Shown here: positions 33,938-49,982 of the stretch, one piece after another
Numbering within the stretch: the first letter of the stretch is position 1
Layout of the letters: each line of letters opens with the position of its first letter
From: an uncultured Halanaerobiales bacterium
Lineage (GTDB): Bacteria; Bacillota; Halanaerobiia; B1SED10-174
NCBI GenBank assembly: GCA_964568715.1
Contig: CAZMQU010000001.1
Coordinates: 143,287-207,286 of the forward strand
Direction: 5' to 3'
Length of the DNA: 64,000 nt
Notes under the pieces: model-generated
What the model saw: only the letters and a program-made list of their open reading frames with translations
Told to the model about the DNA's origin: nothing
Database searches by the model: none
Program-made: the position numbers and the translations under genes

Positions 33938-33970
33938 AAGCGCTAGCAATGCCTTAAGGCATTGCTAGCT
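33938..33970 (-). terminator. Hairpin/terminator overlapping the thrS stop codon
   Basis: GCTAGCAATGCC TTAA GGCATTGCTAGC perfect 12-bp stem; the loop contains the thrS TAA. Confidence 0.55.
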
Positions 33971-35693
33971 TTCTGTTTTTAATTTCATCGGTCAGCATGG
34001 CTACAAATTCTTCAATTTCAAATACACCCATATCACCTTTTGATCGATGTCGTAAAGAAATATTGCAAGCTTGAGTTTCTCTATCGCCCAATACTGCCAT
34101 ATAGGGAAACTTTTGATTTTGGGCTTGGCGAATCTTATAACCGATTTTCTCATCCCTACCGTCCACCGCGGCCCTTATATTTCTCTCATTTAATATCCCT
34201 TGCAATTGCTTAGCATATGAAATATTTTTTTCGCTTATAGGCAGAATGATAACTTGCACAGGGGCAAGCCATAAAGGAAAAGCTCCGGCAAAATGTTCAA
34301 CCAGAATGCCCAAAAATCTTTCCATGGCGCCGAAAAGAGCCCGGTGGAGCAACACTGGACGATGCTCTTGGCCATCGGGACCGACATAGGTTAAATCAAA
34401 GCGTTGCGGTAGTTGGAAATCCAGCTGAATGGTTCCTAATTGCCAGCTGCGTCCCAAACTGTCACTGACGTGAAAATCAATTTTAGGCCCATAAAAAGCC
34501 CCGTCCCCTTCATTTATCATGTAAGCCAAGCCCCGTTTGTCCAAAGCAAGAGCCAAGGCTTGTTCGGCTTTCTCCCAATCCTGCAATGAACCCATATATT
34601 TTTCTGGGCGGGTGCTTAACTCCAAACGATACTCCAGACCGAAGGTATTATATATTTCTTCAGCCATGGCGGTTACACCGAGGACCTCTTCCGTTATCTG
34701 TTCAGGAAGCATATAAATATGGGCATCATCAATATGGAAAGAGCGAACCCGCAAGAGGCCATGAAGAACGCCCGAGAGTTCGTGGCGATGAACCAAGCCC
34801 ATCTCCGCCATACGGAGGGGAAATTCCCTATAGCTGCGTGGTCTCGATTTGTAAATGAGAAGCCCGCCGGGGCAATTCATCGGCCTTATAGCATAGTTGG
34901 TTTCATCGATTGAAGTAAAATACATATTTTCCCGATAGTTTTCCCAATGCCCTGATTGATGCCATAATTCTTCCTTCAGCAAAACCGGGGTCCGAATTTC
35001 TTCATAACCATTTGCATTGTGGAGTTGTCGCCAATATTCGATCAGTTGGTTCCAAACAATGACCCCGCGTGGATGCAAAAAAGGAAATCCCGGCCCCTCA
35101 TCATGGAAACTGAATAAATCAAGCTCCCTGCCCAGTTTTCGATGATCTCTTTTCTTGGCTTCCTCCAAGCGATAAAGGTACTTTTCCAGCTCTTCTTCAC
35201 TGAAAAAAGCCGTACCGTAAATACGTTGCAACATTTTATTCTTTTCATCTCCCCGCCAGTAAGCACCGGCTATACTCAACAACTTAAAAGCCGGTACAGA
35301 ACCCGTTGACTTCAGATGAGGTCCTCGGCAAAGGTCGATAAATTCACCTTGTCGATAAATACTGATATCTTCATCGGCAGGCAACTCGGCAATCAACTCA
35401 AGTTTATATAATTCGCCCATCTCCCTAAAGGTAGCTTCCGCTTCTTCTCTGCCCATTATTACTTTCTCCAAAAGAAGATCTTCAAGAATAATTCTTTTCA
35501 TTTCTTCTTCAATTTTAGCCAAATCATCTGTCGATAAGCGCACGGTCAGGTCAAAATCGTAATAAAAACCATCGTCAATGGACGGACCGATACCCAGTTT
35601 TGCATCGGGATAAATTCTTTTTACAGCTTGGGCAAGAATATGAGATGCTGTATGCCTTAGAGCCTCAAAATCTTTTACTTCCATTCTATACAC
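33954..35693 (-). CDS. thrS: Threonine--tRNA ligase (lacks N-terminal TGS domain)
   Basis: RHTASHILAQAV (editing-domain motif), class II aaRS core, C-terminal anticodon-binding domain; 579 aa. Confidence 0.9.
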   Translation of the reverse strand: MYRMEVKDFEALRHTASHILAQAVKRIYPDAKLGIGPSIDDGFYYDFDLTVRLSTDDLAKIEEEMKRIILEDLLLEKVIMGREEAEATFREMGELYKLELIAELPADEDISIYRQGEFIDLCRGPHLKSTGSVPAFKLLSIAGAYWRGDEKNKMLQRIYGTAFFSEEELEKYLYRLEEAKKRDHRKLGRELDLFSFHDEGPGFPFLHPRGVIVWNQLIEYWRQLHNANGYEEIRTPVLLKEELWHQSGHWENYRENMYFTSIDETNYAIRPMNCPGGLLIYKSRPRSYREFPLRMAEMGLVHRHELSGVLHGLLRVRSFHIDDAHIYMLPEQITEEVLGVTAMAEEIYNTFGLEYRLELSTRPEKYMGSLQDWEKAEQALALALDKRGLAYMINEGDGAFYGPKIDFHVSDSLGRSWQLGTIQLDFQLPQRFDLTYVGPDGQEHRPVLLHRALFGAMERFLGILVEHFAGAFPLWLAPVQVIILPISEKNISYAKQLQGILNERNIRAAVDGRDEKIGYKIRQAQNQKFPYMAVLGDRETQACNISLRHRSKGDMGVFEIEEFVAMLTDEIKNRKLAMP

Positions 35694-35700
35694 CCCTTTT

Positions 35701-35995
35701 AAAAAAATGAACCTTTCGCCTGATAGAGACGAAAGGTTTTCGCGGTTCCACTCTACTAAATCAGTTTAAATAAAGCACTGATTCCCTCAATTTGATAACG
35801 GTCATTGACCGGCCTGTCCTACTCAGTTATTAAATAACCTTCAGCAGGCAGCTCCCAGGTGGTTTTCAAGCCCTGGCACGCAGAAGGATTCCAGCCAAGT
35901 CCTTCTTTCTCTTAGCGCACACTCGGACCCTACTCTTCCTATTCATAGCCATAAAATACAGATATATTTTGTAAACCCATTTTACTTTGAAACAA
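35701..35995 (-). promoter_or_regulatory. T-box riboswitch leader (Thr specifier) with terminator/antiterminator preceding thrS
   Basis: Minus-strand RNA carries AGUAGAGUGGAACCGCG (T-box consensus). It is followed by CCUUUCGUCUCUAUCAGGCGAAAGG + U7, and a candidate specifier sits in GAAAACCACC (ACC = Thr). Confidence 0.8.
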
Positions 35996-43521: not shown

Positions 43522-45138
43522 TTACCAACCCACAACTTGTCCGTCAGTTCGTGGGTCGCTGGCACCGACCAAAACACCTTCATCGGTCCGCCATATTATT
43601 TGGCCCCGCCCGAAACTCGTTATATCTAATTGCTTTTCAATTTGATGACCCCGCCGTTGCAAAGCCCTTGCGACGTGATTGGGGAAATCCGGCTCCACAA
43701 AAATCTTTTTCCCTTCAAGCCACTGCCAGCGGGGTGAGTCCAAAGCTGCCTGCGGATTCATATTTTTATCAACACTATTGATTATAACCTGCAAGTGGCC
43801 TTGCGGTTGCATAAATCCGCCCATAACACCAAAAGGCCCCAGCGCTTCAGCACCTTTGGTTAAAAACCCGGGGATAATGGTATGGTATGTTTTTTTCTGC
43901 GGCTCAAGATAATTGATATGTTCCTCTTCAAGGGAAAAAGTATGACCACGGTTTTGCAGGCTGATGCCGGTACCCGGTACAACCAATCCCGAGCCAAAAC
44001 CCATATAGTTACTTTGTATATAGGAGACCATATTCCCCTCTCCGTCAGCTGTAGCAAGATAAACTGTTCCCCCGGCATCAAAAGAACCCGGCCGGGGTTC
44101 CAAGGCCTTCTCGCCAATCAGGGTTTTTCTTTTTTGGCCGTATTCGGTAGACAGCAAATCTTCCACCGCAGCTTCCATATAACGGGGATCGGTAATATAA
44201 TGCAAGCCGTCGGAGAAAGCCAACTTGAGGGCTTCGATTTGTTTATGGTAGAAATCCACCTTTCCTTCTTGGTCAAGGGAGTAATCTTTTAAAATATTCA
44301 AAGCCATCAATGCAATCATGCCTTGCCCGTTGGGCGGTATCTCCCACACATCATACCCTTTGTAATTTACGCTGACCGGTTTCACCCATTCAGCCCGGAA
44401 AGATTCTAAATCGTAATGGTCCAAAAATCCGCCGTACTTCCGGGCAAAGGCAACAATCTTTTTAGCGAGGCTCCCTTTATAAAAATCATCGCCCTTGCTT
44501 TGAGCAATTAATTGCAGTGTCTGAGCCATTGCCGGAGAATTCCATATTTCACCGACTCGGGGTGCCCGCCCCTTTGGAGCAAAAGTCTCAAACCAAGCGG
44601 AAAATTCTTCGCCCCGCAAATTGGCCTTATAAATATCAAAAGCCCTTTGCCAATTTAGAGCAAGGACCGGCGATACCGGATACCCGGACCGGGCATATTC
44701 AATGGCCGGCTCCAAGCATTCTTCCAAGGTTAACCGGCCAAACCTTTCCAGTGCAGCTACCCACCCCGCCGGTACTCCTGGAACAGTCACCGGCAGCCAA
44801 CCGTATTTAGGCATCGTCTTATGGCCCAAAGCTTTAACTTTGTCAGCACTTATGGCAGCAGGAGCAGGGCCGCTGTTATTCAATCCATAAAGTTTGCCCT
44901 CTTTCCAAATAAGAGCAAAAGAATCACCGCCGATTCCGTTAGCTGTTGGCTCTACCACCGTTAAACAGGCTGCGGTGGCAACAGCAGCATCGATTGCATT
45001 TCCGCCTTTCTTTAAAATCTCAAGGCCCGCCTGGGCAGCAAGGGGTTGCGATGTTGCAACCATGCCCCGCCGGGCATACATGGCCATACGCCGGGAAGTA
45101 TAAGGATTATACAAGGGATCAAATTTCAGCATATACAA
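43522..45138 (-). CDS. ggt: Gamma-glutamyltransferase
   Basis: 538 aa; N-terminus VATSQPLAAQAGLEILKKGGNAIDAAVAT; catalytic TTH-like region GTVYLATADGEGN. Confidence 0.9.
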   Translation of the reverse strand: MYMLKFDPLYNPYTSRRMAMYARRGMVATSQPLAAQAGLEILKKGGNAIDAAVATAACLTVVEPTANGIGGDSFALIWKEGKLYGLNNSGPAPAAISADKVKALGHKTMPKYGWLPVTVPGVPAGWVAALERFGRLTLEECLEPAIEYARSGYPVSPVLALNWQRAFDIYKANLRGEEFSAWFETFAPKGRAPRVGEIWNSPAMAQTLQLIAQSKGDDFYKGSLAKKIVAFARKYGGFLDHYDLESFRAEWVKPVSVNYKGYDVWEIPPNGQGMIALMALNILKDYSLDQEGKVDFYHKQIEALKLAFSDGLHYITDPRYMEAAVEDLLSTEYGQKRKTLIGEKALEPRPGSFDAGGTVYLATADGEGNMVSYIQSNYMGFGSGLVVPGTGISLQNRGHTFSLEEEHINYLEPQKKTYHTIIPGFLTKGAEALGPFGVMGGFMQPQGHLQVIINSVDKNMNPQAALDSPRWQWLEGKKIFVEPDFPNHVARALQRRGHQIEKQLDITSFGRGQIIWRTDEGVLVGASDPRTDGQVVGW

Positions 45139-45246: not shown

Positions 45247-45402
45247 TTACTTTCCTAATTTCATTAGCCCTGTAGCGATATATGCCTGAAAAGGTATGTT
45301 GAAATATCTTGCCAAGACATCTCCCGGAAATAAAGATGCAATATGGCCAATATGCAATGAACTATTCGCATAAGGCCACGCACCATCAATAAATATATTC
45401 AT
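45247..45402 (-). pseudogene. metG: Truncated methionyl-tRNA synthetase N-terminal fragment (51-codon remnant)
   Basis: [34 protein letters not shown] has the MetRS-specific PYANG-LH-GH and DVLARY motifs. Similarity is lost after ~35 aa and a stop follows at codon 52. A strong RBS AAAGGAGG sits upstream. Confidence 0.6.
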
Positions 45403-45570
45403 GGTTTTGCCTCCTTTATAATAAAAAATCCCTCTCCTAAAAATTTTAGGAACGGGATTGCTTTCCGTGTTACCATCCTATTTCACCACATCTTATGATG
45501 TAAAATTCATCAATTACTTTGCCCGGGGCAATTATACTCTATCACTGTAATGGGTGAAATCATTGCAGCC
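45403..45570 (-). promoter_or_regulatory. Degenerate T-box-like leader remnant upstream of the metG fragment
   Basis: Minus-strand RNA carries GGUGAAAUAGGAUGGUAACACGG (14/19 to the T-box consensus AAUUAGGGUGGUACCGCGG). It is followed by hairpin AAUCCCGUUCCUAAAA/UUUUAGGAGAGGGAUU + U-run; an AUGA candidate specifier lies upstream. Confidence 0.35.
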
Positions 45571-45654
45571 TTAAGCCAATCACTTGAAATTATAATAGAT
45601 TTCAATGCACTGCTCCGGGGCCGTTTTCACTTTAAATCTCTTTGTTCTTTTCCA

Positions 45655-46134
45655 TTATAGGGAACTTTCCGGGGCAGCCTTGCCGGTCATGTGATCGATG
45701 GAAATCTCAATTAAACAGACCTTTGCCCATCCTTTCCTAATTACTTCCTCTGCTTCAACGGAATAATCGGGAAAATATTTTTCAACCAGTAGATCGAGGG
45801 CCTTTCTTTTCTGCAAGTCATCGGTAATAAAAACAGCCCGGCCAAAAAGGCAAACGCTGCGAAAATGGGTAGTAAATTCTTTTTGGACAATGTCATCCCT
45901 TTCTATTACGCAAAAGGTTACCTTGTCATTATTTTTTATACTCTCGATCTTATGTCCTTTTTGAGCACTATGCAAGTAAATTTTACCTTTTTCATAAGCA
46001 TAACTCATAGGAACGGTGTAGGGATAACCGTTTTTATCGATGGTACCTAAAACCCCCGAAGTACACTTATTTAATATCTTTATCGATTCTTCCTTTGCCA
46101 AAAGTTTTTCTTTCCTGCGCATCTTTCTAAACAT
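45655..46134 (-). CDS. Pyridoxamine 5'-phosphate oxidase-like FMN-binding split-barrel protein
   Basis: 159 aa PNPOx-like family member (GYPYTVPMSYAY...). Confidence 0.7.
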   Translation of the reverse strand: MFRKMRRKEKLLAKEESIKILNKCTSGVLGTIDKNGYPYTVPMSYAYEKGKIYLHSAQKGHKIESIKNNDKVTFCVIERDDIVQKEFTTHFRSVCLFGRAVFITDDLQKRKALDLLVEKYFPDYSVEAEEVIRKGWAKVCLIEISIDHMTGKAAPESSL

Positions 46135-46179
46135 ACTCCCACCTCATCGTTGTTCAGACTAAATATTTTTAAAATAGGC

Positions 46180-46695
46180 CTAATGATCCTTTGCTGCAGA
46201 TTTTGCCAAGGCATTATTTATTAACATTTTAAAATGATTGAAGTTTCGATAGCCGATTGATTTCATAATTATCTCCCCGTCTTTGTCAACCAGAAAAACC
46301 GTAGGAATACCTTTGATTCCCCAAGCAGACAAGGACTTCATGTTTGTATCCATGAACACGGGAAAAGAAATGCTATATTTTTCTATAAAGTTCCGGACGG
46401 CGTTGAGCGAGTCACCTGCTGATATAGCAACAATTTCAATATCATGGTTTCGGAAAAATTCCAGGTTTTTCTGGTAATCGTTCATCGCTAAAATACAGGG
46501 CTGACACCAGGTTGCCCATACATCAACTAAAATATAGTTGCCTTCTTCTTTAAAGAAAGAGCCAAAACTAATTTTCTCCCCTTCCATGGAGATTAAATCG
46601 ATATCGGTAATTATAGCGCCTTCTTCCAAAGCCAAAACCAAACCTGACCCAAACACTGTAAACAATATTACCAATAACAATATTTTTTTAGTCAT
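46180..46695 (-). CDS. TlpA/ResA-like extracytoplasmic thiol-disulfide oxidoreductase (thioredoxin fold)
   Basis: Signal anchor MTKKILLLVILFTVFGSGLVLA; WATWCQPC active site. Confidence 0.85.
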   Translation of the reverse strand: MTKKILLLVILFTVFGSGLVLALEEGAIITDIDLISMEGEKISFGSFFKEEGNYILVDVWATWCQPCILAMNDYQKNLEFFRNHDIEIVAISAGDSLNAVRNFIEKYSISFPVFMDTNMKSLSAWGIKGIPTVFLVDKDGEIIMKSIGYRNFNHFKMLINNALAKSAAKDH

Positions 46696-46730
46696 GTTGC
46701 CTCCTAAATCAATTTTTTTTTATTTTCCGG

Positions 46731-47549
46731 TTATTGGGGTAAAACTTCATGTAACTTTTTTCGCCTTGGAGAAAATTCCATTACATTTTTGCCCACTTGG
46801 ATATTGACATGGGGGCAAGCTGTACATTCAAAACAGCGAATACATTCGGGACTATTTGGTTCTTCATATACTTTTAAATCCATGGGACAAATATCTTGGC
46901 ACCTTCCGCATTTTGTACAACCATCACCAACATTTAATTTCAAAAAACTGTATCTGTTGAATAAGGAATATATTGCACCCAATGGGCAAACAAAACGGCA
47001 AAAAAACCTTTTTGAAAATATAAAAGAAAATAAAAATACGACCGTCAAAGCCAATTTTCCGTAAAAGAAGGGCCCGATGACTTGCCGGATGCTTTTATCG
47101 GTTACCGCCAATGGTACCCCGCCCTCCAAGGTACCGACAAAACACAGTTTGGAAAACCATGGTTCCCCGCTAATATATGGTATAAACAAGACCAATACCA
47201 ACAATACGATATATTTAAAAAATCTCAACTGTGTGCAATTAATTTTGATTTTGGGCGTTGGTATCTTGTATAGCATTTCTTGCAGCCAGCCTATTGGACA
47301 AGCCCAACCGCATATCAACCTACCCACGGTGGACCCGATAAGGGTAAAAAATCCGATCAACAGGAAGGGTATTTTTTTAATAACCATAAAATGCTGCAGA
47401 CTGCCAATTGGGCAAGCTCCCAAGGCCCAAGGGCAGGCATAACAGTTCAAGGCCGGAACTGGGCAGTATTTAAAAGTAAACCCAAATGGATTATATAAAA
47501 CGAAAGACAGCATTTGAACGTATTTGCGAATACTTCTTTTTTTCAACAA
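46731..47549 (-). CDS. NapH/MauN-like membrane polyferredoxin (4Fe-4S binding)
   Basis: CYACPWALGACPIG and CGWACPIGWLQ N-terminal CxxCP motifs, TM helices, C-terminal CTKCGRCQDICP and CIRCFECTACP ferredoxin motifs. Confidence 0.8.
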   Translation of the reverse strand: MLKKRSIRKYVQMLSFVLYNPFGFTFKYCPVPALNCYACPWALGACPIGSLQHFMVIKKIPFLLIGFFTLIGSTVGRLICGWACPIGWLQEMLYKIPTPKIKINCTQLRFFKYIVLLVLVLFIPYISGEPWFSKLCFVGTLEGGVPLAVTDKSIRQVIGPFFYGKLALTVVFLFSFIFSKRFFCRFVCPLGAIYSLFNRYSFLKLNVGDGCTKCGRCQDICPMDLKVYEEPNSPECIRCFECTACPHVNIQVGKNVMEFSPRRKKLHEVLPQ

Positions 47550-47736
47550 AGATTCATCCCACCCCTATACAAGATAAGCAAGTTATTATAGCATTGAAAA
47601 AAATATCCATGTATTCCCGGCGAAGAATACCGCATAATAAGAAAAGCAAACCAAATAACCATAAATATTTATAGCTTTTGATGTATATCACCCCTTTATC
47701 GGTCTTTCAACCATATGTCCTAATTTTAGATGTAAC

Positions 47737-48714
47737 TCAATCTTTATCTTCGCTAAAGAGTTGCAAGTATTGGCCATAACCTTCCTCTGCCAGTTTTTCT
47801 TTGGGTATAAATTTCAAAGCAGCTGAATTTATACAATACCTAAGCCCGCCCCGCTCACGCGGTCCATCTTTGAATACATGTCCCAGATGTGAATCAGACA
47901 ATTTGCTGCGTACTTCCGTCCGAATCCTGCCACGGCTGGTATCGAGCTTTTCGACCAATAAATCTTTCTGGAAAGGTTTTGTAAAGCTAGGCCAGCCTGA
48001 TCCGGAATCATACTTATCGGAGGATATAAAAAGAGGCTCACCGGAAATGATATCGACATAAATACCCTCCCTTTTTTCATTCCAATATTCATTATCAAAA
48101 GGCGGCTCGGTACCGTCCTCACGGGTAACATGGTATTGCAAATCAGTAAGACTTTGCCTTAATGCCTCGTCATCAACATCAAAGGACCAATGTTTTTCAA
48201 TAAATTCATCCCGACCGGAACTTTGACGATATTTATTATAGTGCTTGGGATTCTTCTTATAAAAACTTTGATGATATTCTTCGGCCGGCCAAAATTCCTG
48301 GGCAGGCAAGATAGCTGTTACAATCGGTTTTTGAAAACGGCCACTTGCCGCCAAAGCATCTTTGGAAGCTTCGGCTTTATCTTTTTGAGCAGGGCTATGA
48401 TAAAAAATAGCAGTTCGATAAGAGTCACCTTTATCGCAAAACTGGCCGCCAGGATCGGTGGGATCAATCTGGCGCCAAAATATATCCAGCAATTTTTGGT
48501 ATGAAATGATATTGGGATTGAAGGTTATCTGGATGGCTTCCAGGTGGCCGGTATTACCACTACAGACCTGTTCATAACTGGGCTTGGTCACCCAGCCGCC
48601 GGTATATCCTGATACAACCTTATTAACGCCGGGATACTCATCGAAGGGCATAACCATACACCAAAAACAACCTCCGGCAAAAGTTGCCAATTCGTGATTA
48701 GCCAATGGAATCAC
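47737..48714 (-). CDS. msrAB: Bifunctional peptide methionine sulfoxide reductase MsrA/MsrB
   Basis: GCFWC (MsrA active site) N-terminal; C-terminal MsrB with RYCINSAAL and HLGHVF. Confidence 0.9.
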
Positions 48715-48956
48715 TCCTCAATCTTTATTTTAAAGACAAAGCAATTCAATGATTATAGTATATGTTTCTTTCGATTATATCACCGTTTTTCCTTTTTGCA
48801 AAATAACAATATTTTTGTCAAACCAGATAATGGTAGCTTATTCGCAATGTTTTAAAAAATTAAATTATCTTGATTTTAATACCAAAAAATATTGAAGGTA
48901 TATAATTTATTAATATTTGAAAAAATAAAATGAATAGAAGAAAGGAGGATTTTTTA

Positions 48957-49145
48957 ATGCCTCAACAACTCAGTCAAATTGAACTGCAAAACCTAAGGGA
49001 AATTATCAACAACCATCAAACAGGGGCTGCAAAGTTACAAGCCTATGCACAACAATGTAATGACCATCAGCTAAAACAAATGTTACAACAATCAGCCCAA
49101 TCGGCTCAGCAAACAACCCAAAAATTAATGTCATTTTTACAATAA
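48957..49145 (+). CDS. CotF-like spore coat protein (small, Gln-rich)
   Basis: MPQQLSQIELQNLREIINNHQTGAAKLQAYAQQCNDHQLKQMLQQSAQ Coat_F-like; AAAGGAGG RBS. Confidence 0.65.
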   Translation: MPQQLSQIELQNLREIINNHQTGAAKLQAYAQQCNDHQLKQMLQQSAQSAQQTTQKLMSFLQ

Positions 49146-49161
49146 GGAGGTGCCAGGATAA

Positions 49162-49416
49162 ATGCAAGATAAGGATATAACCAACGACATCCTTTCCATG
49201 TTAAAAAGCAGCCTTACAACGTACACCAATGCCATTGCCGAATCCGGTAGCCAAGAATTGCGGCAAACTTTGTCTCAAATCAGAAACTCCGATGAGCAAT
49301 TCCAGTTTCAGCTGTCACAATTCGCCTCACAAAAAGGTTATTACCCCCCATCGTCTTCGGCTTCAACTCAAGATATTCAACAAACACATTCTCAGTTGCA
49401 AAGATCAAGTTCCTAA
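49162..49416 (+). CDS. CotF-like spore coat protein, second member of the pair
   Basis: DILSMLKSSLTTYTNAIAESGSQELRQTLSQIRNSDEQFQFQLSQFASQKGYY Coat_F-like; 16 nt after the previous gene. Confidence 0.65.
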   Translation: MQDKDITNDILSMLKSSLTTYTNAIAESGSQELRQTLSQIRNSDEQFQFQLSQFASQKGYYPPSSSASTQDIQQTHSQLQRSSS

Positions 49417-49450
49417 ACTAAAGGAGTAGAAAACAAAAATAAAGCAATTA

Positions 49451-49479
49451 AAAACCGGTTTTGGCGAACCGGTTTTTTA
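49451..49479 (+). terminator. Terminator after the cotF-like pair
   Basis: AAACCGGTT ttggcg AACCGGTTT + TTTT. Confidence 0.7.
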
Positions 49480-49535
49480 AATCTTTTTTCCTGCCATAAA
49501 GAACGAGTAAATGCTTATACTAAATTCCAAAGGAG

Positions 49536-49982
49536 GTGAAAATAATAAAGAAGAAAATAAATATTTTCATAATCATTGCTTTGTTGTTCTTGACTACCAT
49601 AAATTCTTTTGCAGCAAATAAACATTTCTTTTATCATTACAGTCAAGAAGAATTGAAGAAAAAATTGAAGCTAACAGCCCCGCAAGAGGAACAATTAACG
49701 GAAATTTTCAAACGGCATAATGATGAGACAAAAGAAATACAGGTTCAATTGCGGGCGGCAAAAAGAGAATTAAAAAGATTATGGGTAGCGGAAGATCTCG
49801 ACAAAAATGAAATTAAAGCAAAGATGGATCAAGTCACTGATTTAAAAATGAAAATGCATGAAGCTTGCTCCTCCCTGTCAAAAGATGTGAAAAATATTCT
49901 GACCAAAGGACAATTGGAAGAGTTGGAAAGGATGCAAAAAAGCAAACAGCGAGTTGAAGATAAAAGAATCAAAAAGAAATGA
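49536..49982 (+). CDS. Spy/CpxP-family (LTxxQ motif) extracytoplasmic chaperone-like protein
   Basis: Signal peptide; two LTxxQ motifs (LTAPQEEQL, LTKGQLEEL); charged helical repeats. Confidence 0.7.
   Translation: MKIIKKKINIFIIIALLFLTTINSFAANKHFFYHYSQEELKKKLKLTAPQEEQLTEIFKRHNDETKEIQVQLRAAKRELKRLWVAEDLDKNEIKAKMDQVTDLKMKMHEACSSLSKDVKNILTKGQLEELERMQKSKQRVEDKRIKKK

Follow-up and report, generated by a model that had tools for sequence, protein, structure and literature searches.

The window analysed here, a stretch of 64,000 nucleotides from an uncultured Halanaerobiales bacterium, carries a run of co-oriented genes on its minus strand that encode an MsrA/MsrB fusion (MsrAB), a membrane polyferredoxin (PFD), an exported thioredoxin-fold protein (TRX), and a flavoprotein of the PNPOx family. 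A preliminary description of this DNA had proposed that PFD serves as the transmembrane electron conduit for an envelope thiol and methionine-sulfoxide repair system. We confirmed the coordinates and common orientation of the four open reading frames (ORFs), as well as the 35 nt that separate PFD from TRX. A public metagenome contig carries the same four genes in the same order. MsrAB had been placed directly upstream of PFD, and it is indeed the neighbouring gene, but the 187-nt gap between the two contains a conserved ORF of 42-45 codons with a CxxC motif, which the preliminary description had missed. The features of the locus are as follows:

48774..48802, minus strand: sigma-70-like promoter match, TTGCAA-16-TG-TATAAT, upstream of msrAB (pattern match only)
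48714..47737, minus strand: MsrAB, 325 aa, Pfam PMSR and SelR
47691 (GTG) or 47682 to 47554, minus strand: small CxxC membrane protein, 45 aa, or 42 aa if the start is set by homology at 47682
47549..46731, minus strand: PFD, 272 aa, Pfam Fer4_5 at 52 bits
46695..46180, minus strand: TRX, 171 aa, AhpC-TSA/Redoxin/Thioredoxin_8, active site WCQPC
46134..45655, minus strand: PNPOx-family Nim-like flavoprotein, 159 aa, Pyridox_ox_2 at 82 bits, 45 nt after TRX

From these genes and their relatives, we consider it likely that the small CxxC protein, PFD, and TRX would form a three-part pathway that carries reducing equivalents outward and does the job of CcdA/DsbD by a different mechanism.

The PFD family is large. 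A word-indexed search returned 1879 clusters at 90% identity, and an exhaustive search returned 5942 representatives at 50% identity with E <= 1e-3, of which 260 had E <= 1e-30. We fetched 80 PFD loci from GTDB species genomes belonging to many phyla; linkage counts use 79 of these. The four nearest relatives share 59-65% identity with PFD, and the closest locus, at 59%, is from a Halobacteroidaceae metagenome-assembled genome (MAG).

In Pfam, PFD matches Fer4-type families only, with a Fer4_5 core. Its earlier label as a NapH/MauN-type protein stands at the level of the superfamily and falls at the level of the family: the score was 79.4 bits with TIGR02163 (NapH/MauN; curated cut-off 213), 67.2 with the NapH equivalog NF007013 (cut-off 234), and 30 with the NosR model (cut-off 1000). 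The architecture is of the NapH type, with two CX3CP motifs after transmembrane (TM) helices, two 4-Cys motifs, and, by prediction, four TM helices with cytoplasmic termini. The membrane motifs, which had been read as CxxCP, are actually CX3CP (C80-x3-C84-P and C184-x3-C188-P). Both C-terminal 4-Cys cluster motifs are present as described (C211..C221P and C236..C245P), although the second required correction to CxxCxxCxxCP. Because the NapH profile covers only residues 65-247, the N-terminal C36xxC39P..C46P loop lies outside it. We found no napG/napA or mau genes in the window region or among the recurrent neighbour families of PFD, and a MauE/DoxX gene lies near PFD in only a few Eisenbacteria-type loci. 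The curated thresholds together with the gene context led us to reject PFD as NapH proper.

In an alignment of relatives, all 16 Cys residues of PFD are invariant or nearly so, and each of the 8 in the membrane domain is kept in 79-80 of 80 sequences. A topology check had been recommended, and we ran it using hydropathy and the positive-inside rule on a 30-sequence alignment. The prediction is four TM helices in an N-in/C-in arrangement with Cys on both faces: the first outer loop holds C36-xx-C39-P...C46-P and the second holds C136, C80x3C84P and C184x3C188P lie at the inner face, and the C-terminal 2x[4Fe-4S] ferredoxin domain is in the cytoplasm. An AlphaFold 2 model had a predicted local distance difference test score (pLDDT) of 78.6 overall, with confident helices. 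No solved structure resembling the membrane part was found.

TRX was confirmed as an exported or anchored thioredoxin-fold protein with a WCQPC active site; its hydrophobic N-terminal signal or anchor reads MTKKILLLVILFTVFGSGLVLA, and together these are the features of an extracytoplasmic oxidoreductase fold. Matches to AhpC-TSA (73 bits), Redoxin (63 bits), and Thioredoxin_8 (57 bits) are all above the gathering cut-offs. Scores with the subfamily models remained below theirs (ResA, 94 versus 170; StoA, 64 versus 210; DsbE, 47 versus 123; TlpA, 43 versus 230). By its profile scores, TRX is a member of the TlpA/ResA/DsbE group at the superfamily level only.

To count linkage we used a hidden Markov model built from the TRX cluster. 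A TRX gene on the same strand lies less than 500 nt from PFD in 25 of the 79 loci and within 2.5 kb in 32, across many phyla, and AhpC-TSA/Redoxin is the commonest Pfam family among 150 ORFs flanking PFD. In all four nearest relatives the PFD and TRX genes overlap or abut, while the surrounding genes are wholly different. The conduit idea had been staked on conservation of this pair, and the pair is retained.

Natural gene fusions provide what we regard as the strongest evidence for coupling of PFD with TRX. Of the 148 closest representatives at 50% identity, 34 are single proteins in which PFD is followed by one TlpA-like domain or by two. Counting the predicted TM helices from the ferredoxin domain to the TRX domain gives an odd number in 33 of these 34 (one helix in 32, three in one), so the two domains would lie on opposite faces of the membrane. 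In both fusion genes that we inspected, the small CxxC ORF is found directly upstream; thus, the small protein appears to be a separate, conserved third component. The variable gene order around the pair, as well as the many loci without TRX, might suggest that PFD and TRX are functionally uncoupled and stand together by chance. This explanation is refuted by the conservation of the pair across phyla, the 34 natural fusions, and the position-specific small ORF, and we give it almost no weight.

The small ORF came to light through 42-residue called genes ahead of PFD in close relatives, followed by a six-frame reading of the window. It reads ...KSYKYLWLFGLLFLLCGILRREYMDIFFNAIITCLSCIGVG, contains one TM helix, ends in CLSCIGVG, and has its stop 4 nt before the start codon of PFD. 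We searched for further copies using the pattern [C/stop]xxC[ILMV]G[ILVM]x0-2-stop at the C-terminus. In 68 of 79 loci the pattern occurs within the 1 kb preceding PFD, and no other partner of PFD is as tightly linked as the small ORF. Related loci totalling 809 kb gave 70 matches on the PFD strand, 68 of them just upstream of PFD and the other two 3.4-3.7 kb upstream, and zero matches on the opposite strand. The 64-kb window contains one sole match.

The window ORF has the features of NCBIfam NF040920 (CD1871A family CXXC motif-containing protein), namely a length of about 40-50 aa, one TM helix, and a C-terminal CxxC-[ILMV]-G. It aligns end to end with that profile (positions 4-38 of 38) at 27.5 bits, which is below the cut-off of 32; its relatives scored 12.6-28.6. 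As a protein query, the Clostridium version returned four entries, one of them named, and the Clostridium lundense copy beside PFD carries the CD1871A family name in nr.

The first Cys codon of the small ORF is TGA in 34 loci and TGC/TGT in 34; it is never TAA/TAG. In the orthologs with UGA, the ORF stays in frame past this codon, and a hairpin, GGGGUC-GGGU-GACCCC, starts 12 nt later and spans the ORF's own stop codon (e.g., L029:5919-5958 and L011:5147-5186; loci within L004-L082). This hairpin is 87.7% paired, has 15 compensatory cells, and beats every slid register; none of 500 shuffles matched the observed pairing, compensatory-cell count, or covariation score. UGA aligned with Cys, in-frame continuation, and a downstream hairpin are hallmarks of bacterial selenoproteins, which the UGA orthologs display and the window copy, a Cys form, does not. 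By these marks, UGA plus hairpin is the standard signature of a redox-active site of selenocysteine (Sec) or Cys with a bacterial element of the selenocysteine insertion sequence (SECIS) type: UGA and Cys interchange at one position, and a SECIS-like hairpin follows. The family thus looks like an unannotated group of small selenoproteins of about 45 aa that gene callers miss or shorten.

The charge bias of the small protein (K/R 2.3 ahead of the TM helix; K/R 1.1 and D/E 2.0 after it) predicts an N-in/C-out arrangement and so places C/UxxC outside. The small protein is probably the actual thiol/selenol shuttle. In the literature searched, we found no description of the PFD-TRX system, of the small protein's role, of a link between the CD1871A family and PFD/TRX, or of selenocysteine forms, and the selenoprotein preprint of Haft & Gwadz (10.1101/2022.07.06.499078) does not cover the small CxxC/UxxC family. 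In a Dehalococcoidia MAG (L009:4945-5464), the TRX gene beside PFD is itself interrupted by an active-site TGA (NFWATY-U-SPC), and this TRX partner may also be a selenoprotein; it is the only clear case of a Sec-containing TRX partner.

Other fusions and neighbours point to the source of electrons. A GltD-like module (Fer4_20 plus Pyr_redox_2) is fused to the N-terminus of PFD in the representatives P0132 and P0176 and to its C-terminus in P0160. Since this NAD(P)H/FAD module is cytoplasmic, fusions at either end would put both termini of PFD in the cytoplasm, in agreement with the topology predicted from hydropathy and charge. A free-standing GltD-like gene adjoins PFD in WOR-3/Stahlbacteria-type and Deferrimicrobium-type loci, and NAD(P)H is a plausible ultimate donor in lineages with a GltD-like partner. 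PFD has no adjacent GltD-like partner in the window organism, where reduced ferredoxin is our default guess for the donor. Some family members, such as P0145, carry an extra N-terminal di-cluster module resembling NapG/NrfC (Fer4_7/Fer4_11) instead of the flavoprotein, which suggests that alternative input modules exist.

Several gene arrangements recur around PFD. In one, a GltD-like gene, cytochrome c3, ResB, CcsA, the small ORF, PFD, and in some cases TRX make up a System II cytochrome c biogenesis operon, and PFD occupies the place often held by the ccdA gene. Another comprises an Mrp-like protein (identified by sequence inspection, with no profile scan), a glutaredoxin-like Thioredoxin_3 protein, a TrxB-like reductase, a glutaredoxin, TRX, the small ORF, and PFD. 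In Deltaproteobacteria loci, TRX is found fused to TPR domains. In Clostridium, Desulfosporosinus, and Tepidibacter (L050, L053, L055, L065, L068, L072), a Bce-type ABC ATPase, an FtsX permease, a response regulator, and a histidine kinase flank TRX, the small ORF, and PFD; the family namesake, C. difficile CD1871, is an ABC permease in a conjugative-transposon region, consistent with the Bce-type context. This Bce-like cassette hints at a mobile, possibly antimicrobial-responsive version of the system.

Two further sets of neighbours were observed at such loci. In ResB-CcsA type loci, PFD, or TRX in L074, is followed by the gene for a conserved protein of about 636 aa and seven TM helices that matches nothing in Pfam (L044:6903-8813, L070:5988-7898, L074:7354-8616). 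This protein includes the stretch WWDL..KIFTSDFGTH and may be a further component there. In Eisenbacteria-type loci (L015, L025, L060, L066), the small ORF and PFD are immediately preceded by a rhodanese-like ORF (called by eye, with no profile scan), a MauE/DoxX membrane protein, and a multiheme cytochrome. MauN, which is NapH-like, is found together with MauE/MauD in gene clusters for methylamine utilisation, and by this analogy there may be an older tie between the NapH-like superfamily and thiol-redox partners.

The same parts could also support an opposite or quinone-linked flow, in which a NapH-like PFD oxidises TRX in the manner of DsbB/VKOR or draws on menaquinol. PFD has the Fer4_5 core and CX3CP motifs in common with NapH, the proposed quinol-oxidising subunit, and a quinol donor has been suggested for some NapH-like systems (Meheust et al. 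2021, PMC8238504). However, TRX falls in the reductive TlpA/ResA/DsbE group, the contexts with ResB/CcsA, TrxB-like reductase, and glutaredoxin are reductive, and the NAD(P)H/FAD GltD-like fusions indicate a low-potential donor in the cytoplasm. In addition, the PFD family is present in Clostridium species, most of which have no quinones, and menaquinol is too oxidising for the reduction of thioredoxin-like CxxC sites. We consider quinone-linked or oxidative flow unlikely.

We weighed, too, whether PFD might be a metal reductase or trafficking protein like CcoG, reducing Cu(II) or another metal or metalloid, with the small tail and a Sco/TlpA-like TRX binding or passing the metal. The TRX of one related locus (L003) weakly matches SCO1/SenC, CDF transporters lie close to PFD in four loci, and the window has an LTXXQ/Metal_resist gene 0.8 kb upstream of msrAB (49536-49982, plus strand), which encodes an exported Spy/CpxP-like protein beside Coat_F-like ORFs. 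For other systems, a role in binding metals has been proposed for motifs rich in Sec/Cys (10.1101/2022.07.06.499078). Against this, the nine NCBIfam hits of PFD at E <= 0.01 include no CcoG/FixG model, and the genes that recur beside PFD belong to thiol redox chemistry and cytochrome c maturation and do not include copper ATPases or chaperones. The fusion partners examined are TRX, GltD-like, or extra Fe-S modules, with no copper ATPase or chaperone domain among them. A role in metal handling is, in our estimate, slightly less probable again than quinone-linked flow.

MsrAB and the PNPOx-family protein had been proposed as parts of the same module. MsrAB matches PMSR (211 bits) and SelR (156 bits), and the MsrA and MsrB equivalog models score above their cut-offs. 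Its start lies 12-15 residues before the active site GCFWC (residues 15-19), an in-frame stop is found immediately upstream, and there is no hydrophobic N-terminus. The position of the start and the upstream stop indicate that MsrAB is cytoplasmic and lacks a signal peptide, so it cannot be a direct client of the exported TRX. The PNPOx-family protein scored 190.6 bits with NimABCDEF, below the family cut-off of 260, and by this match is a cytoplasmic Nim-like flavoprotein.

Neither MsrAB nor PNPOx has a homolog near PFD in any of the 80 related loci (phmmer, both proteins against all ORFs), and we dropped both as conserved members of the system. The proposed module with MsrAB and PNPOx is thus not borne out, and the absence of both an export signal and a conserved adjacency removes the basis for envelope methionine-sulfoxide repair.

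Regeneration of MsrAB by PFD and TRX, as in CcdA-Etrx-MsrAB2 or PilB, would be suggested by msrAB lying directly upstream, with a single good promoter match before it and no terminator-like site between the genes. The match has 10 of 12 consensus positions plus an extended -10 TG; three terminator-like sites were detected between 48714 and 45655, all within coding sequence. A single five-gene transcript from msrAB through the Nim-like gene is therefore possible. One related locus (L083) also has an MsrA fragment 1.5 kb off on the opposite strand. However, an MsrAB with neither signal peptide nor anchor sits across the membrane from TRX, and it is near PFD in 0 of 80 related loci, making such a repair system very improbable. 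MsrAB and the Nim-like gene are at most co-transcribed or co-regulated oxidative-stress neighbours in this one lineage.

The statement that no ccdA is present holds for the 64-kb window: every multi-TM ORF was assigned to another family, and none has a CcdA-like PCxxP motif. A multi-TM ORF with PCxxP was also absent from the related loci. DsbD is not among the 25 commonest families of the 150 neighbour ORFs, and it was absent from the large TRX-cluster and multi-TM ORFs scanned near PFD. PFD itself does not belong to DsbD/CcdA (Pfam PF02683, PF13386).

The role proposed for PFD as a CcdA-independent transmembrane conduit for the exported TRX is thus supported by pair conservation, fusions, topology, ResB-CcsA context, and the lack of an adjacent DsbD, and we regard the PFD-to-TRX conduit as strongly supported by the comparative evidence. 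What the sequences show is the gene linkage, the fusions, the predicted membrane side of each domain, the conservation of the Cys residues, and the exchange of Sec and Cys in an ORF with a SECIS-like hairpin. In the three-part pathway that we favour, a cytoplasmic donor, either reduced ferredoxin or NAD(P)H via a GltD-like flavo-iron-sulfur partner, would deliver electrons to the C-terminal 2x[4Fe-4S] domain of PFD. An inner-face centre built from the two CX3CP motifs would receive them next, and after it the four invariant Cys of the outer loops. The small subunit would take them up with its flexible C-terminal C/U-x-x-C tail and so reduce the WCxPC site of TRX, which in turn would reduce its clients, including apocytochrome c where ResB/CcsA adjoin. 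We infer the direction of electron flow, the assignment of individual Cys to clusters or to disulfides, and the identity of both the clients and this organism's donor.

Several points weigh against this pathway. Its support comes from comparative sequence evidence. About 55% of loci have no TRX in their 6-kb flanks, so PFD and the small subunit may also serve other acceptors. Seven evaluable loci lack the small ORF, and a relaxed search of these seven still found none. The AlphaFold 2 model is unreliable (pLDDT about 50) over residues 28-45, precisely where the C36-C46 loop lies. Electrons would have to reach an outward-facing Cys cluster, and it would be unusual for an Fe-S cluster to be assembled on the outer face. 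The hints of metal handling, from CDF transporters in related loci and the LTXXQ/Metal_resist gene near the window locus, also count here. Finally, redundancy with CcdA is possible; the search for DsbD/CcdA covered the window and the PFD flanks.

Reducing power in the envelope is assigned in textbooks to DsbD/CcdA, fed by cytoplasmic thioredoxin, and is drawn on to mature cytochrome c, isomerise disulfides, repair oxidised proteins, and synthesise the spore cortex. We give roughly even chances to the broader proposal that the PFD system adds to DsbD and CcdA a third class of transmembrane disulfide reductase with a distinct mechanism. In it, an eight-cysteine NapH-like Fe-S protein would wire ferredoxin or NAD(P)H to the outer face, and the C/U-x-x-C tail of a 45-residue subunit would reduce exported thioredoxins; the class would be widespread in anaerobes, would replace CcdA in some System II operons, and would include a new bacterial selenoprotein family. 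If this is true, anaerobes have a chemically different solution, in which the thiol redox state of the envelope is tied directly to pools of ferredoxin or NAD(P)H. Thousands of genes annotated just as '4Fe-4S binding protein', 'polyferredoxin', or 'NapH' would gain a function, System II operons without ccdA would be explained, and a tiny, usually unannotated selenoprotein would be added to the prokaryotic selenoproteome.

Several other features surround the cluster. Directly past the Nim-like gene (45247-45636, minus strand), a degenerate T-box leader (45445-45636; local search, E = 1.4e-5, 32.7 bits versus a gathering score of 93) precedes an ORF of 51 codons (45402..45247, minus strand). The match of this ORF to the methionyl-tRNA synthetase domain is confined to the domain's first 32 positions, HIGH motif included. 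Together, leader and ORF look like what is left of a metG gene under T-box control. Another T-box leader, this one full-scoring (119 bits), is found at 35722-35955 on the minus strand, upstream of a 579-aa ORF (35693..33954). Just downstream of the cluster lies a gene for gamma-glutamyltranspeptidase, an enzyme of thiol (glutathione) metabolism (43522-45138, minus strand; 526 bits). Divergent from msrAB on the plus strand are a small spore-coat-F-like ORF with a weak match (48930-49145) and a second small ORF (49162-49416; Coat_F, 82 bits); with the LTXXQ/Metal_resist gene, these neighbours (48930-49982) are envelope-stress or spore-related. The organism is a spore-former, with YIEGIA, SpoVAC, and CotF proteins encoded in the window, and a StoA-like role of TRX in sporulation is possible as a guess.

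Among known systems, the closest functional analogue is CcdA/DsbD feeding ResA/TlpA/CcmG, including the System II arrangement CcdA-ResA-ResB-ResC. The shared proposed job is to bring electrons across the membrane to an exported TlpA/ResA-like thioredoxin, and PFD resembles CcdA in its location beside ResB/CcsA in some relatives. PFD is, however, not homologous to DsbD/CcdA and has no DsbD Pfam match. DsbD/CcdA uses one Cys pair in a 6-8 TM transporter-like fold and is fed by cytoplasmic thioredoxin, whereas PFD carries a 2x[4Fe-4S] domain, eight further invariant Cys, and a separate small C/UxxC subunit.

The closest structural relatives are NapH (NapGH), MauN, NosR/NirI, and PceC/RdhC, which have the Fer4_5 core, CX3CP after TM helices, a C-terminal di-cluster ferredoxin, and a 4-TM N-in/C-in topology. 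NapH-like PF12801 proteins have been described as modular transmembrane electron conduits that are partnered with flavinylated proteins and respiratory reductases (Meheust et al. 2021, PMC8238504). PFD differs in scoring below every curated family cut-off and in the C36xxC39P..C46P loop outside the NapH profile. It also lacks an FMN-binding domain or partner, nap/nos/rdh genes are absent from its surroundings, and its partners, a thioredoxin and a Sec/Cys mini-protein, are not described in that study.

The cupric reductase CcoG/FixG/RdxA (and YccM) is similar in being a membrane polyferredoxin with two [4Fe-4S] and Cys motifs and a thiophilic substrate (PMC7558416). CcoG is larger, with five TM helices and a periplasmic Ig-like domain, and is encoded in ccoGHIS. 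PFD shares neither the sequence, the ccoGHIS context, nor the Ig-like domain of CcoG/FixG: it matches no CcoG model, has no recurring copper genes and no cco genes nearby, and leaves no room for an Ig-like domain because the protein ends 27 residues past the last cluster motif.

Ferredoxin:thioredoxin reductase and heterodisulfide reductase/DsrK use one-electron Fe-S centres to reduce disulfides, a two-electron step, and in mammalian thioredoxin reductase the C-terminal GCUG tail is a mobile Sec/Cys shuttle to thioredoxin. The likeness of these enzymes to the PFD system is one of chemical logic only, as the sequences are unrelated; they are soluble or cytoplasm-facing, whereas the PFD relay would cross the membrane. 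CcdA-Etrx-MsrAB2 of Streptococcus pneumoniae and PilB/DsbD of Neisseria likewise have an exported thioredoxin gene beside msrAB. Those envelope systems have CcdA/DsbD as the conduit and an MsrAB that is exported or exposed at the surface; here, MsrAB is cytoplasmic, neither exported nor anchored, and its adjacency is not conserved. The small ORF resembles the CD1871A family in fitting its 38-position profile end to end, but the match is below the cut-off and that family is known by name only. Taken together, the system is best filed as a variant of the NapH-like transmembrane electron conduits with a CcdA/DsbD-like function.

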